A DNA stretch of 64,000 nucleotides from the NCBI GenBank assembly GCA_035649175.1, contig DASRKB010000084.1, positions 9,730-73,729 of the forward strand. The letters are read 5' to 3'. Numbering within the stretch: the first letter of the stretch is position 1; every line of letters starts with the position of its first letter. This document shows positions 42,367-46,813 of this stretch, in pieces. Origin of the DNA: Burkholderiales bacterium (GTDB lineage Bacteria > Pseudomonadota > Gammaproteobacteria > Burkholderiales > SG8-39). Made by a program: the position numbers and the translations under genes. Below the pieces are notes generated by a model. That model saw only the letters and a list, made by a program, of their open reading frames with translations. It searched no databases and had not been told where the DNA came from.

Positions 42367-43029
42367 CTAGAGCTTCAGGTTCAGCACTTCCTTCACCGGG
42401 GCGGCGTGCTCGCGCATGAGCGCCTCCGCGCGCGCGCCCTCGCGGTTCTCCAGCGCCTCGACGATCGCGTGGTGCTGCCGGTGCGCGTAGCCCAGGACCG
42501 GCAGTAGTTGCGCCGGATCGCGGCTGAAGGCGACCGCGCTCGCCGAGGCGAACGGCACATGGTCGTTGCGGGCGAGCGCGTCCGCGACGATGCGGCTACC
42601 GGCCCCCTCGACGATGAGCGCGTGGAAGCGGCCGTTCATCTCGCTGTAGCGCGCTTCGTCCGCGCTTTCGAAGCGCCGCCTGGCGAGGATGGCGTCGCCC
42701 TGGGAAAGGCATTCCCTCAAGGACCGTACCAGCTCGGGCGCCGGCCCCCGTTCGGCGATGCGCCGCGCGGCGAGTCCTTCGAGCACACCGCGCGTCTCGA
42801 TCGCGTCGAGCACGTCCTGTGGGCTGAACGCGCGCACCACGTAGCCACGCCGCCCGGCCGCGGCGAGCAGGCCTTCGCGCGCGAGCGCCGGCAGCGCCTG
42901 CCGGATGGGCGTACGCGATACCCCCAGCCGCGCCGCGAGCGCCACCTCTGCCAGACGCTTTCCGGGCGCGAGCTCACCCCGCAGGATCATTTCCCGCAGC
43001 CGGAGAGCGACGTTTTTGTATCCAATCAC
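42367..43029 (-). CDS. GntR-family regulator with an FCD-type ligand domain
   Basis: LRLREMILRGELAPGKRLAEVALAARLGVSRTPIRQALPALAREGLL (winged HTH) plus a helical C-terminal domain. GTG start. Divergent from the ligM-like operon. Confidence 0.88.
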   Translation of the reverse strand: MIGYKNVALRLREMILRGELAPGKRLAEVALAARLGVSRTPIRQALPALAREGLLAAAGRRGYVVRAFSPQDVLDAIETRGVLEGLAARRIAERGPAPELVRSLRECLSQGDAILARRRFESADEARYSEMNGRFHALIVEGAGSRIVADALARNDHVPFASASAVAFSRDPAQLLPVLGYAHRQHHAIVEALENREGARAEALMREHAAPVKEVLNLKL

Positions 43030-43066
43030 CCCGGCTCCATGGGAAAAGGGAGCGCTGGAGGGGCTG

Positions 43067-43080
43067 GATTGGATCCAATC
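43067..43080. promoter_or_regulatory. Perfect 14-bp palindrome GATTGGATCCAATC, candidate operator of the GntR regulator
   Basis: Read directly in the divergent 93-bp intergenic region. The 8-mer ATCCAATC recurs at 43020-43027, across the regulator's own GTG start. Confidence 0.45.
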
Positions 43081-43122
43081 ATTGCGATAGAGTAGCCCTC
43101 CCCACCGGAGGAGGCAAACGCA

Positions 43123-44517: not shown

Positions 44518-44530
44518 GAGGAGTCCGGCC

Positions 44531-45637
44531 ATGAGCGCACCGTTCCGCGCCGACCACGTCGGCAGCCTCCTCCGCCCGCACGAGCTGCATGACCTGCGCG
44601 CGCAGGTGCGCGCGGGCAAGGCCGACGCCGCGAAGCTGCGCGAGGCCGAGGACCGCCTGATCCGCGAGGTGGTGCAGCTGCAAGAGGACCTCGGCCTGCC
44701 CGCGATCACCGACGGCGAGTTCCGCCGCGACTGGTGGCACATCGACTTTCTCGCCGGCTTCGACGGCATCGAGCTCGTCGCCGAGGAAGATCCCTACCAT
44801 GGCATCCAGTTCAAGGGCGCCGAGGCGAAGCCGCCGACCATGTTCGTGAGAGGGAAGCTGCGCCGCACGAAGCCGAGCATGGTGCCCCACTTCGCGTTCC
44901 TGAAGAGCGTCGTCAAGCGGGGCGTGCCGAAGTTCACCATGCCCTCCCCGGCGATGCTGCACGCGCGGGGCGACCGCGAGTCGATCCGCAAGGCCTACCC
45001 GAACGCCGACAACTTCTGGGCCGACCTCACGCAGTGCTACCGCGAGGAGATCGCGGAGCTCTACAAGGCCGGCTGCCGCTACCTGCAGATCGACGACACC
45101 ACCATCGCGATGTTCGGCGACCCGAAGGTGCAGGAGCAGTTCCGCAAGCTCGGCGACGATCCGAAGAGGGACGTGGCGGTCTACGCCGAGGCGGTCAACC
45201 AGGCAATCCGCGACGTGCCCGACGACATGACGGTCGCGATCCACACCTGCCGCGGCAACTTCAAGAGCACCTGGCTCGCGAGCGGCAGCTACGACTACGT
45301 CGCCGAGACCGCGTTCTCGAAGATAGACGTCGACGGGTTCTTTCTCGAGTTCGACGACGAGCGCTCCGGCGGCTTCGAGCCGCTGCGCCACGTCACTAAG
45401 GGCAAGCGGGTCGTCCTCGGGCTGGTCTCTTCCAAGGTTCCCGCCCTGGAAGACAAGCAAATGCTGAAGCGCAGGATCGAGGCCGCGTCCCAGTTCGTCC
45501 CTCTCGAGAACCTCTGCCTGTCGCCGCAGTGCGGCTTCTCGAGCACGCACCACGGGAACAACCTCACGGTCGAGCAGGAGAAGGCGAAGCTCAAGCTCTG
45601 CGTCGACACGGCAAGAGAGATGTGGGGGGAACTCTGA
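44531..45637 (+). CDS. Short cobalamin-independent methionine-synthase-like methyltransferase (MetE C-terminal-domain family)
   Basis: FRADHVGSLLRP...ITDGEFRR..W...YLQIDD...AIHTCRGN...LSPQCGFSS (His/Cys/Cys zinc-ligand pattern of the Meth_synt_2 fold), 368 aa. AGGAGGAG Shine-Dalgarno. Confidence 0.85.
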   Translation: MSAPFRADHVGSLLRPHELHDLRAQVRAGKADAAKLREAEDRLIREVVQLQEDLGLPAITDGEFRRDWWHIDFLAGFDGIELVAEEDPYHGIQFKGAEAKPPTMFVRGKLRRTKPSMVPHFAFLKSVVKRGVPKFTMPSPAMLHARGDRESIRKAYPNADNFWADLTQCYREEIAELYKAGCRYLQIDDTTIAMFGDPKVQEQFRKLGDDPKRDVAVYAEAVNQAIRDVPDDMTVAIHTCRGNFKSTWLASGSYDYVAETAFSKIDVDGFFLEFDDERSGGFEPLRHVTKGKRVVLGLVSSKVPALEDKQMLKRRIEAASQFVPLENLCLSPQCGFSSTHHGNNLTVEQEKAKLKLCVDTAREMWGEL

Positions 45638-45972
45638 AGGCGATCCCCGACACCACGATCTTCGACCTGCGCGCCTCGCGCCGGGGGTTGCGGCTGAACA
45701 AGATGTGCGGCTCGCTGTGCTCGCCGGAGAACCGCGCGGCCTTCAAGCGCGACGAGGAAGCCTACATGGCGAAGTTCGAGCTGACCGAAGAGGAGAAGAA
45801 CCTCGTCCGCAAGCGCGATTTCGCCGGACTGATCCACGCCGGGCTCAACATCTACTGGATGCTCAAGCTCGGCTCGGTCACCGGCAACAGCCTCTACCGC
45901 ATGGGCGCCCAGATGCGCGGCGAGTCCTACGAAGAGTTTCTTTCCACGCGAAACTTCAAGGATGCCGTCTAG
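45622..45972 (+). CDS. Extradiol dioxygenase small subunit (LigA-like)
   Basis: IPDTTIFDLRASRRGLRLNKMCGSLCSPENRAAFKRDEEAYMAKFELTEEEKNLVRKRDFAGLIHAGLNIYWMLKL parallels LigA (...ENRERFKADESAY...RDYNAMIDEGGNVYFLSKL). GTG 45622 is proposed as the start. Confidence 0.8.
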   Translation: MGGTLKAIPDTTIFDLRASRRGLRLNKMCGSLCSPENRAAFKRDEEAYMAKFELTEEEKNLVRKRDFAGLIHAGLNIYWMLKLGSVTGNSLYRMGAQMRGESYEEFLSTRNFKDAV

Positions 45973-46813
45973 GATCGTCGGCGGGATCGGTCTGTCGCAC
46001 GTGCCCTCGGTGGGCGTGGCCTACGACCGCGGCAAGCTGCAAACGCCGGCGTGGAAGCCGCTCGCCGATGCCTACGTTCCGGTCAGGGCGTGGCTGGAGA
46101 AGCTGAGACCCGACGTGGCGATCGTGGTCTACAACGATCACGGCGCCGACTTCATGCTCGAGAAGTACCCGACGTTCGCCATCGGCGCGGCGGATTCCTA
46201 CGCCATCGCCGACGAGGGCTTCGGCACCCGCCCGCTGCCCACGGTGCGCGGGGATGCGGAATTCTCGTCCCACGTCATCGAAGGCCTCATCGAGGACGAA
46301 TTCGACCTGACGGTCTGCCAGGAGATGGGCGTCGAGCACGGCTTCCTCGTGCCCATGAACCTGTGCTTCGAGCACGGCCCGCAGGGCTGGCCGGTCGCCT
46401 CGGTGCCGCTGCAGGTGAACGTGATCCAGCACCCACTGCCCACCGGGCCGCGCTGCTTCAAGCTCGGCCAGGCGCTACGGAAGGCGGTCTCGTCCTACGA
46501 GAAAGACCTCAAGGTCATCGTCATGGGCACCGGAGGGATGTCGCACCAGCTGCAGGGCAAGCGCTTCGGGTTCATGAACGAGCGGTTCGACCAGATGTTC
46601 CTCGACAGGCTCGAGTCCGACCCCGAAGAGCTGGCGAAGCTCTCGCACGAGGAGATCATGGAGCAGGCGGGCGCCGAGGCGGTCGAGCTCATCATGTGGC
46701 ACGTCATGCGCGGTGCGCTCTCGCCGCAGGCGAAGCGCGTGCACCGCCACTACTACGCGCCCATGACCACCGGGATGGGGCTGATCACGTTTCAGGAACC
46801 CCAGGCGACATAG
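45962..46813 (+). CDS. Class III extradiol dioxygenase catalytic subunit (LigB-like; protocatechuate 4,5- or gallate-type)
   Basis: GIGLSHVPS...VVYNDHGADF...PTFAIG...DEGFGTRPLP...VEHGF.VP...GTGGMSHQLQG...DPEEL...VELIMWHVMRGAL tracks LigB (SHIP.., VYNDHASAF, DVDHG, GTGGMSHQLQG). Confidence 0.9.
   Translation: MPSRIVGGIGLSHVPSVGVAYDRGKLQTPAWKPLADAYVPVRAWLEKLRPDVAIVVYNDHGADFMLEKYPTFAIGAADSYAIADEGFGTRPLPTVRGDAEFSSHVIEGLIEDEFDLTVCQEMGVEHGFLVPMNLCFEHGPQGWPVASVPLQVNVIQHPLPTGPRCFKLGQALRKAVSSYEKDLKVIVMGTGGMSHQLQGKRFGFMNERFDQMFLDRLESDPEELAKLSHEEIMEQAGAEAVELIMWHVMRGALSPQAKRVHRHYYAPMTTGMGLITFQEPQAT

Follow-up and report, generated by a model that had tools for sequence, protein, structure and literature searches.

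We analyzed a stretch of 64,000 nucleotides, here called the window, from a Burkholderiales bacterium (GTDB group SG8-39; assembly GCA_035649175.1, contig DASRKB010000084.1, positions 9,730 to 73,729). Between metK and the unit formed by an S-adenosylhomocysteine (SAH) riboswitch and ahcY it carries a tightly packed operon, ligM-metEs-ligA-ligB. These genes encode a predicted tetrahydrofolate (THF)-dependent aryl O-demethylase, a short single-barrel protein resembling the methionine synthase MetE, and the two subunits of a predicted ring-cleaving dioxygenase. Our reading, whose correctness we regard as about an even matter, is that a lignin-monomer module was added to the methyl-cycle locus of uncultured soil Burkholderiales (metK, metEs, riboswitch-ahcY, a PanE-like gene and a gene in the slot of methylenetetrahydrofolate reductase, MTHFR), and that ligM and metEs together route methoxy groups to methionine. 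The proposed route from the methoxy group through 5-methyl-THF to methionine is well supported by context.

The pairing of ligM with a short MetE-like gene, remarked on in an earlier note made from the letters of this window, recurs massively. Querying metagenomes with LigM yielded 80 loci, and 39 with a LigM at least 80% identical to that of the window had assessable downstream sequence. In 35 of these 39 loci metEs directly followed ligM, and in one further locus it came after an intervening PF01717 gene (36 of 39 with the pair), leaving three without it. A genome scan with one genome per species gave 79 loci with metEs relatives of 68-86% identity, and the pair was present in 27 of them. 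Since the three exceptional metagenome loci (L131, L132 and L133; LigM 80% identical) have no metEs downstream, the pairing is not obligatory. The ligM gene without metEs follows metK in L132 and L133, and small opposite-strand genes are located after it in L132.

A second group of LigM proteins, of about 70-73% identity, had a different partner. An MTHFR-family neighbour was found in 17 of the 21 assessable loci of this group and metEs downstream in none. Likewise, LigM homologues on plasmids of Rhizobium, Agrobacterium and Rhodococcus adjoin an MTHFR gene, with or without purU/folD. The neighbour of LigM is thus exchanged between metEs and MTHFR, and metEs therefore occupies the slot of an enzyme consuming the folate product of LigM.

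Furthermore, ligM and metEs move between genomes together, as a cassette of two genes. A tree of MetK and AhcY scattered the ligM-bearing loci among ligM-free ones, and the metEs copies of the ligM-bearing loci grouped together. Because strict monophyly of ligM-linked metEs was only moderately supported, we relied on pairwise comparisons and on mosaics seen in sliding windows. The loci L009 and L062 shared 99% identity in MetK, 94% in AhcY, 94% in the kinase and 88% in LigB, but only 70% in metEs. The metEs of L009 was instead 88% identical to that of the ligM-bearing locus L002, whose backbone is more distant. According to sliding-window nucleotide identity the exchanged tract consisted of ligM and metEs, with edges where metK meets ligM and close to the boundary of metEs and ligA.

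In the loci L052, L076 and L099 ligM was found immediately upstream of a metEs of another clade (clade B), together with desA, a further LigM-type gene, in L076 and L099. In the latter two it was inserted between the clade-B metEs and a divergent second PF01717 gene. The metEs of L052 and L076 was the resident B-type along its whole length; the possibility that these copies are chimeras with an L-type 5' end was tested and rejected. In L094, moreover, ligM is followed by a 45% identical and more canonical PRK06520 member (590 bits). From these contexts it follows that LigM became the upstream neighbour of three different metEs lineages.

The identity of the demethylase was assessed with profile models (thresholds are NCBIfam equivalog or subfamily cut-offs; Pfam matches are given as E values and Rfam matches with gathering scores). 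The window protein exceeded the cut-off of the LigM model (Table 1) and reached 675 bits with the DesA model, below its cut-off of 800. Scores with the GcvT model (77 bits, cut-off 300) and the DmdA model (40 bits, cut-off 410) were low, so the protein called LigM-like in the earlier note is a LigM orthologue and not a plain GcvT or DmdA. The structures 5x1i and 5tl4 of LigM from Sphingobium SYK-6 matched residues 3-462 with E = 7.6e-196. The tyrosine of the SRAY motif is conserved and aligned with Tyr250 of the structure chain, which corresponds to native Tyr247; this residue is said, in the description of structure 5TL4, to be the catalytic tyrosine of SYK-6 LigM. By orthology, the gene is predicted to encode a THF-dependent vanillate/3-O-methylgallate O-demethylase.

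A second LigM-type paralogue matching the DesA equivalog (syringate O-demethylase, 822 bits with a cut-off of 800) was present in some relatives. It was listed between ligM and metEs in L020, L076, L088, L092, L093, L095, L096, L099, L111 and L129; in L095 ligM-desA is followed by ligA without metEs. Loci with both genes would be equipped for the two demethylations that lead from syringate to gallate, and ligAB is present in some of them as well.

The partner enzyme, metEs, belongs by sequence to the uncharacterised YxjH/1YPX family (PRK06520/PRK06233), being neither a truncated MetE nor a member of one of the four described core methionine synthase families. It scored only 38 bits with the MetE model TIGR01371 (cut-off 930) and differs from the two-barrel architecture of MetE (Meth_synt_1 plus Meth_synt_2, about 750 amino acids). 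Its closest solved relative was 1YPX, a Listeria protein from structural genomics (E = 4.4e-102, residues 3-368), far ahead of the C-terminal barrels of MetE (about 1e-7) and of the MesD structure 3rpd (3e-4). Members from Listeria, Priestia and Klebsiella are about 46% identical to metEs. At 50% identity the family comprised 998 clusters (E <= 1e-30); the members listed were almost all single-domain proteins of about 370 amino acids.

Other identities were considered and rejected. A MesD/MesX assignment was dismissed in view of the weak 3rpd match, and no DUF1852 gene was found among the neighbouring genes. Corrinoid-dependent core MetE and enzymes of the S-methylmethionine or betaine-homocysteine methyltransferase type were ruled out by sequence distance and by absent partner genes. 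Four longer members of the family (P0125, P0158, P0199 and P0203) were inspected as possible Rosetta-stone fusions. Three were joined to unrelated LysR, AMP-binding C-terminal and tetratricopeptide repeat domains, and P0125 had a 250-residue N-terminal part without family match; all four are likely gene-call artefacts and none was informative. A single-sequence AlphaFold2 model of metEs was poor (mean predicted local distance difference test score 48.6) and was not used.

To compare the active site, the zinc and homocysteine residues of MetE were taken from PMC7857596 and the folate contacts, in Thermotoga maritima numbering, from PMC539065. The alignment covered the window metEs, nine relatives from related loci and the Listeria, Priestia and Klebsiella members against the MetE of Escherichia coli and T. 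maritima. All zinc ligands (His641, Cys643, Glu665, Cys726) and homocysteine ligands (Ser433, Glu484, Asp599) were invariant.

Regulation within the family points to the methionine cycle as well. A SAM (S-adenosylmethionine) riboswitch is located directly upstream of the 46% identical homologue on a Priestia plasmid (L081); apart from it, the Klebsiella and Priestia plasmid contexts were uninformative. The yxjH gene of Lactobacillus shares a transcript with luxS, is controlled by a methionine-specific T-box and is induced in the absence of methionine (PMC6004538). In the window no riboswitch was detected by Rfam upstream of metEs, ligM or metK, and control of metEs here appears to lie with a GntR operator or with read-through from metK.

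The 79 loci of the genome scan are nearly all titled as metagenome-assembled genomes of uncultured Burkholderiales or Betaproteobacteria, with a few Gammaproteobacteria, Enterobacteriaceae or Clostridia. Where the region from metK to ahcY was covered, the order was lpxL, lpxL, metK, (gntR), (ligM with or without paralogue), metEs, (ligA-ligB), kinase, 223-amino-acid gene, riboswitch-ahcY, panE and then orf317 or metF, with variable genes in parentheses. Direct adjacency of metEs to metK without ligM was common (L025, L026, L029, L032, L039, L043, L053, L056), and in the smallest loci metEs is followed directly by ahcY (L030, L037, L039). The ligAB genes were independent of ligM: L031, L034, L042 and L062 carried ligAB without ligM, and L016 ligM without ligAB. 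Because the metK-metEs adjacency without ligM is so common, metEs is core to the methyl-cycle locus of this lineage, and gntR, ligM, desA and ligAB are separate variable additions. The idea of an accessory insertion of five genes between metK and ahcY consequently holds for gntR, ligM and ligAB, but not for metEs, which is resident, and the parts vary independently. Across the related loci the block is neither wholly core nor wholly accessory.

Several variants of this arrangement were observed. L046 (6899-9258) carries a tandem duplication of metEs between metK and ligAB, each copy 70% identical to that of the window. A second PF01717 family of about 405 amino acids lies divergently beside clade-B metEs in L041 (3672-4901, minus strand) and at least 12 other loci; its members keep the zinc ligands and have GALPR in place of GSxxR. 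In L107 (2235-3389) a relative of this family separates ligM from metEs within one operon. The two single-barrel proteins might act jointly, as the two barrels of MetE do. Another clade of metEs (B1) was found around position 10000 of 21-kb loci (L050, L054, L057, L058, L059, L065, L068). It sits in a conserved neighbourhood that looks like an aromatic catabolic cluster without LigM, in the order major facilitator superfamily (MFS) transporter, FAD-dependent aromatic monooxygenase, metEs and an enzyme requiring thiamine pyrophosphate (TPP; NF006203). In L054 and L068 the cluster continues with a LigB-like protein, a Bug-family binding protein and a LigA-like protein.

In the window a GntR regulator gene is divergent from ligM and convergent with metK with zero spacer. 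Its best solved relative was Atu1419 of Agrobacterium fabrum (6z74, 6za0, 6za3, 6za7, 6zab; E = 2.1e-35, next match 4e-17). Atu1419, from the VanR group of GntR regulators, represses both a LigM-like and an MTHFR gene. Its binding sites are a 10-bp palindrome and a degenerate second site, and methylene-THF was proposed as its effector (PMC7797058). The 93-nt spacer between gntR and ligM holds a perfect 12-bp palindrome, ATTGGATCCAAT, at 43068-43079, and a degenerate copy, TTGTATCCAA, is located at 43016-43025 within the 5' end of gntR, 53 bp from the palindrome. The pattern matched the window twice with 0.59 matches expected, a count that by itself is not significant. In 14 gntR-bearing loci, however, the block GATTGGATCCAATCATTGCGCTA was invariant and the sequence from there to the ribosome-binding site of ligM nearly unchanged, whereas the flank on the gntR side varied. 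We regard the palindrome and its degenerate copy as a candidate operator, the layout of which resembles the two-site operators of the tetrameric Atu1419.

The gntR gene occurred in only a subset of ligM loci. In variants lacking it the genes start 13-60 nt after metK and are probably transcribed by read-through from there. GntR homologues with 55-58% identity to that of the window were also found near LigM of the MTHFR-partnered clade (L137, L146), and a regulator of the VanR type thus seems to accompany LigM irrespective of its partner.

The dioxygenase genes follow metEs closely. Where ligA starts is uncertain, with a GTG at 45622 that overlaps the metEs end and homology from 45640 onwards. 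LigA matched 1b4u_A (E = 4.4e-16) and the C-terminal domain of DesB (E = 1.4e-14) and scored 81 bits with the PCA_ligA model TIGR02792, below its cut-off of 109. LigB was equidistant from 1b4u_B (4.8e-82) and the gallate dioxygenase DesB (3wku, 8.5e-81), and its score with the gallate dioxygenase model PRK13367 was 325 bits (cut-off 412); the subunits are separate and not fused. The LigB residues aligned with His12, His61, His195 and Glu242 of 1b4u_B are all conserved. His12, His61 and Glu242 are reportedly iron ligands and His195 catalytic, as given for the 1B4U structure. The loop aligned with Ser269-Asn270 of SYK-6 LigB has a DesB-like length. By sequence LigAB belongs to the class III extradiol dioxygenases. 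Its substrate is probably protocatechuate and/or gallate, a choice left between the two because of the equidistance of LigB and because only the subfamily model was passed.

Taken together, the cluster may work as follows. In gntR-bearing variants the VanR-type repressor would bind ATTGGATCCAAT and control ligM-metEs-ligA-ligB. LigM, as expected of an orthologue, would move the methoxy methyl group of vanillate or 3-O-methylgallate to THF, giving protocatechuate or gallate and 5-methyl-THF. The intact active site and the regulation of the family suggest that metEs is a zinc enzyme that methylates homocysteine; most likely it would consume the 5-methyl-THF made by LigM, freeing THF and passing the methoxy carbon to methionine. 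MetK would then turn methionine into SAM, and AhcY would return homocysteine. The demethylated ring would be opened by the LigAB-type dioxygenase, as family membership suggests, and excess 5-methyl-THF may go to the protein in the MTHFR slot. Four points of this scheme are inferred: what donates the methyl group to metEs, which substrate LigAB cleaves, to which effector the repressor responds and what physiological purpose the route serves. Methyl scavenging is a more likely purpose than bulk catabolism, since one homocysteine is required per turnover.

Precedents exist for parts of this scheme. In Sphingobium (lignivorans) SYK-6, which carries ligM-metF-ligH, MTHFR oxidises 5-methyl-THF and the methoxy carbon is the source of the methyl group of methionine (PMC11868366). 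An engineered pair of LigM and MetE recycles THF (PMC12628177), which speaks for our reading.

Several observations weigh against methylfolate as the donor. In T. maritima MetE the C-terminal barrel contacts methyl-H4PteGlu3 (the methylfolate substrate) through DMV467-469, Arg493, Arg496, Trp539 and Glu583 (PMC539065). In the alignment with metEs, in which single positions are uncertain at about 20% identity, these contacts are replaced (DMV467-469 by WWH, Arg493 by Ala, Trp539 by Ala and Glu583 by Val), and only the position of Arg496 keeps a basic residue, Lys in the window. This last position speaks for our reading, as a lead and not as proof. The residue, number 100 of metEs, aligns with T. 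maritima Arg496 (Lys in E. coli), a contact to the first folate glutamate, and was the sole position that cleanly separated ligM-linked from other local metEs types. Lys or Arg occupied it in 44 of the 59 copies preceded by ligM or desA, and all 46 copies lacking such an upstream gene had Gln; the contrast is inflated by shared ancestry, and the three ligM-linked copies of clade B keep Gln. Also against methylfolate, metEs has no N-terminal barrel, the four characterised core methionine synthase families do not use methylfolate (PMC7857596), and no methyl donor demonstrated for any YxjH/1YPX member was found in the literature searched.

The genomic evidence has its counterweights as well. Strict monophyly of ligM-linked metEs was recovered in 46 of 100 bootstraps and not with p-distances. 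The co-transfer could be hitch-hiking: the metEs alleles, at about 70-75% nucleotide identity, are too diverged for crossover, and homologous acquisition of ligM would therefore drag the donor metEs along. The model does not explain why ligAB follows metEs without ligM in at least 11 loci (L028, L031, L034, L036, L040, L042, L044-L046, L062 and others). Furthermore, regeneration of THF at catabolic flux is beyond methionine synthesis unless a large methyl sink is available. The methoxy-to-methionine route of the earlier note is favoured by context and by the slot of the MTHFR that consumes 5-methyl-THF, and is weakened by the replacement of the canonical folate contacts.

The foremost alternative, which we consider clearly less probable than our own reading, is a housekeeping role. 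Here metEs would be a resident methionine synthase with a non-folate donor, and ligM would stand beside it because the metK-metEs junction is permissive and highly expressed. The link would exist at the pathway level only, with excess 5-methyl-THF handled by the enzyme in the MTHFR slot (orf317 or MetF). The residence of metEs after metK in many ligM-free loci favours this view, as do the absent folate contacts, the donor range of the characterised core synthases (MesA-D, PMC7857596) and recombination tracts, which can explain the co-transfer. The site moreover appears generally permissive, since ligAB, an ABC (ATP-binding cassette) transporter and other genes are also inserted around metEs (L015, L019, L033). 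A single permissive site, however, hardly accounts for ligM upstream of three metEs lineages in two unrelated genomic contexts, and the clean swap of metEs and MTHFR as neighbours of LigM also speaks against this view. In the gntR variants, moreover, metEs is separated from the metK promoter and lies behind a candidate operator of the VanR type, which would be odd for a sole housekeeping enzyme.

The loci with metEs-ligA-ligB and without ligM (at least 11) would find an explanation if metEs took the methyl group directly from a methoxylated aromatic, as a folate- and cobalamin-independent aryl methyl ether:homocysteine methyltransferase yielding methionine and a catechol for LigAB, with LigM acting in parallel or as a complement. 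The B1 clusters without LigM (MFS, FAD monooxygenase, TPP enzyme, LigB, Bug, LigA), the missing folate contacts, the invariant W-W-H in place of DMV on the donor side of the active site and the precedent of LigM, in which an aryl methyl ether undergoes SN2 attack without help from a metal cofactor (PMC12628177), are in line with such an activity. We nevertheless judge it improbable. The family members of Listeria, Lactobacillus, Priestia and Klebsiella are under methionine or SAM control, linked to luxS and without aromatic genes nearby, which argues for a ubiquitous donor. No precedent is known for an aryl O-demethylase that depends on a thiolate, it would be redundant to acquire ligM and desA repeatedly just upstream, and the homocysteine stoichiometry poses the same problem as in our model. 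Very improbable, in our opinion, is an ordinary aromatic-catabolic islet placed in the SAM cycle by accident, with metEs methylating or otherwise acting on some different thiol in place of homocysteine. Epoxyalkane:CoM (coenzyme M) transferase is an example of a MetE-like barrel with such a substrate, and the housekeeping flanks of the window would suit an isolated islet. The homocysteine site of metEs is, however, invariant, its family is regulated by SAM and by Met T-boxes, and metEs lies between metK and ahcY lineage-wide, even without aromatic genes. A bolder extension, and in our view a long shot, would make the YxjH/1YPX enzymes a fifth kind of core methionine synthase, with a donor derived from lignin methoxy groups in these soil Burkholderiales. 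In its strongest form the aryl methyl ether would be used directly, by a thiolate-based O-demethylation independent of folate and cobalamin, which would explain both the metEs-ligAB and the FAD monooxygenase-metEs-LigAB clusters without LigM. In its milder form a single barrel would use 5-methyl-THF, with ligM-metEs as a mobile cassette; such use without the N-terminal barrel would contradict the current rule for core synthases.

The features of the locus are listed in Table 1. Profile matches confirmed metK, the GntR regulator, LigM, the MetE-like protein of 368 amino acids, LigA and LigB where the earlier note had placed them, and its short gap with a Shine-Dalgarno sequence between ligM and metEs is borne out as well (13 nt from the ligM stop to the metEs ATG, containing GGAGGAG).

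Table 1. Genes and RNA element of the metK-ahcY region in the window
Feature	Position	Strand	Supporting match
metK, S-adenosylmethionine synthetase, left border	41203-42366	+	TIGR01034, 591 bits (cut-off 309); three S-AdoMet_synt domains
GntR/FCD regulator, VanR group (Atu1419-like)	42367-43029	-	PF00392 and PF07729
ligM	43123-44517	+	NF047885, 754 bits (cut-off 580)
metEs, 368 aa, single-barrel MetE-like	44531-45637	+	PF01717 only; PRK06520, 435 bits (cut-off 313)
ligA-like small subunit	about 45622-45972	+	PF07746, E = 1.3e-30
ligB-like catalytic subunit	45962-46813	+	PF02900, E = 7e-67; PRK13365, 411 bits (cut-off 299)
Ser/Thr protein kinase	46792-47919	-	Pkinase, E = 2.3e-53
223-aa protein	47919-48590	-	without family match
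SAH riboswitch ahead of ahcY	48654-48732	+	RF01057, 56.3 bits (gathering score 37)
ahcY, S-adenosylhomocysteine hydrolase	48770-50188	+	PF05221, E = 2.6e-147
PanE/ApbA-like reductase	50188-51117	+	ApbA domains
orf317, 317 aa	51068-52021, likely start about 51092	+	PDB 3ijd, E = 6.3e-50

Within the operon the start of ligA adjoins or overlaps the metEs end, and ligA and ligB share 11 nt. The scan revealed no terminator-like site between ligM and ligB, and a sigma-70 consensus scan found no ligM promoter. Not five genes, as first counted, but seven are located between metK and the riboswitch; the additional ones encode the Ser/Thr kinase and the 223-amino-acid protein (46792-48590, minus strand). 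In most related loci the two genes keep this position, with the dioxygenase (or metEs) on one side and the SAH riboswitch on the other; they are lineage-conserved residents outside the ligM-metEs module. Around the riboswitch a promoter-like site (48622-48649) and a terminator-like stem (48719-48748) were found. The riboswitch is also present in L002, L026 and L032.

The ahcY-metF arrangement named in the earlier note was not found: ahcY is followed by the PanE/ApbA-like reductase and orf317, not by a canonical metF. In six related loci (L014, L019, L034, L037, L039, L045) a canonical metF follows panE. In orf317 no Pfam or NCBIfam match was detected, and the uncharacterised 3ijd was its only PDB relative. 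Its position in the metF slot and the 3ijd match suggest that orf317 may be a non-canonical MTHFR analogue, possibly working with the PanE-like reductase; a shallow hhalign comparison with MTHFR gave a probability of 5.6% and no support for homology.

The wider flanks in the window carry dapF, xerC, genes for lipid A acyltransferases and panB, all with housekeeping functions; lig pathway genes beyond those of the operon were not found there. A pair of an Xre-type antitoxin and a RES-domain toxin is located at 54649-55758 (plus strand), followed by a TPP-requiring enzyme at 55768-57498. A relationship of the latter to the TPP enzyme accompanying clade-B1 metEs was considered; with only 37% identity, the resemblance was treated as coincidental.

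If our reading is true, the cluster represents a natural alternative to the route from LigM through MTHFR and formyl-THF, in which THF is recycled via methionine. Lignin methoxy groups would then be a direct methyl source in abundant uncultured soil Burkholderiales, a terrestrial counterpart of the assimilation of methyl groups from dimethylsulfoniopropionate (DMSP) by marine bacteria. It would also assign a methyl donor and a role to the large YxjH/1YPX family (about 1000 clusters at 50% identity) and put to the test the rule that methylfolate is no substrate for methionine synthases with a single barrel. For lignin valorisation it would offer a compact two-gene module for O-demethylation with cofactor recycling, a scheme that engineers have already built from LigM and a full-length MetE.

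The earlier note knew of no description of such a pairing. The idea of passing methoxy carbon to methionine is already known (PMC11868366, PMC12628177), whereas a natural, adjacent and co-transferred pair of LigM and a single-barrel enzyme in the place of MTHFR appears undescribed in the literature searched.

The LigM clusters of SYK-6 and of Agrobacterium, Rhizobium and Rhodococcus are similar to the present one in combining an orthologous THF-dependent O-demethylase with a dedicated neighbour for 5-methyl-THF, and in Agrobacterium and Rhizobium a GntR regulator adjoins as in the window. Their neighbour is, however, an MTHFR that oxidises 5-methyl-THF, whereas here it is a homocysteine methyltransferase-like enzyme, without purU, folD or ligH and inside a metK-ahcY locus.

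With canonical MetE of E. coli and T. maritima, metEs shares the catalytic (beta-alpha)8 barrel and the same zinc and homocysteine ligands, but it is half the size and lacks the N-terminal barrel as well as DMV, Arg493, Trp539 and Glu583. MesA-MesD and the core MetE of Dehalococcoides likewise lack the N-terminal barrel and consist of a single barrel in which the zinc and homocysteine sites are conserved (PMC7857596). MesA-MesD are nevertheless only distantly related to metEs; in the window no gene for MesX/DUF1852 or a corrinoid protein is nearby, and the context points to methylfolate. YxjH/YxjG of Firmicutes and 1YPX belong to the same family and share the link to SAM recycling (yxjH-luxS there, metK/ahcY here). 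These relatives are controlled by SAM riboswitches or Met T-boxes and are without aromatic genes nearby, whereas metEs has no riboswitch ahead of it and is paired with ligM, desA and ligAB.

Finally, the assimilation of DMSP methyl groups through DmdA in roseobacters (PMC12366255) and the engineered LigM-MetE system (PMC12628177) likewise lead from a GcvT-family demethylase through 5-methyl-THF to a methionine synthase. In these systems the synthase is MetH-like or a full-length MetE and is encoded elsewhere or supplied, whereas the pair described here is natural and adjacent, with a single-barrel enzyme that is co-transferred with its demethylase.

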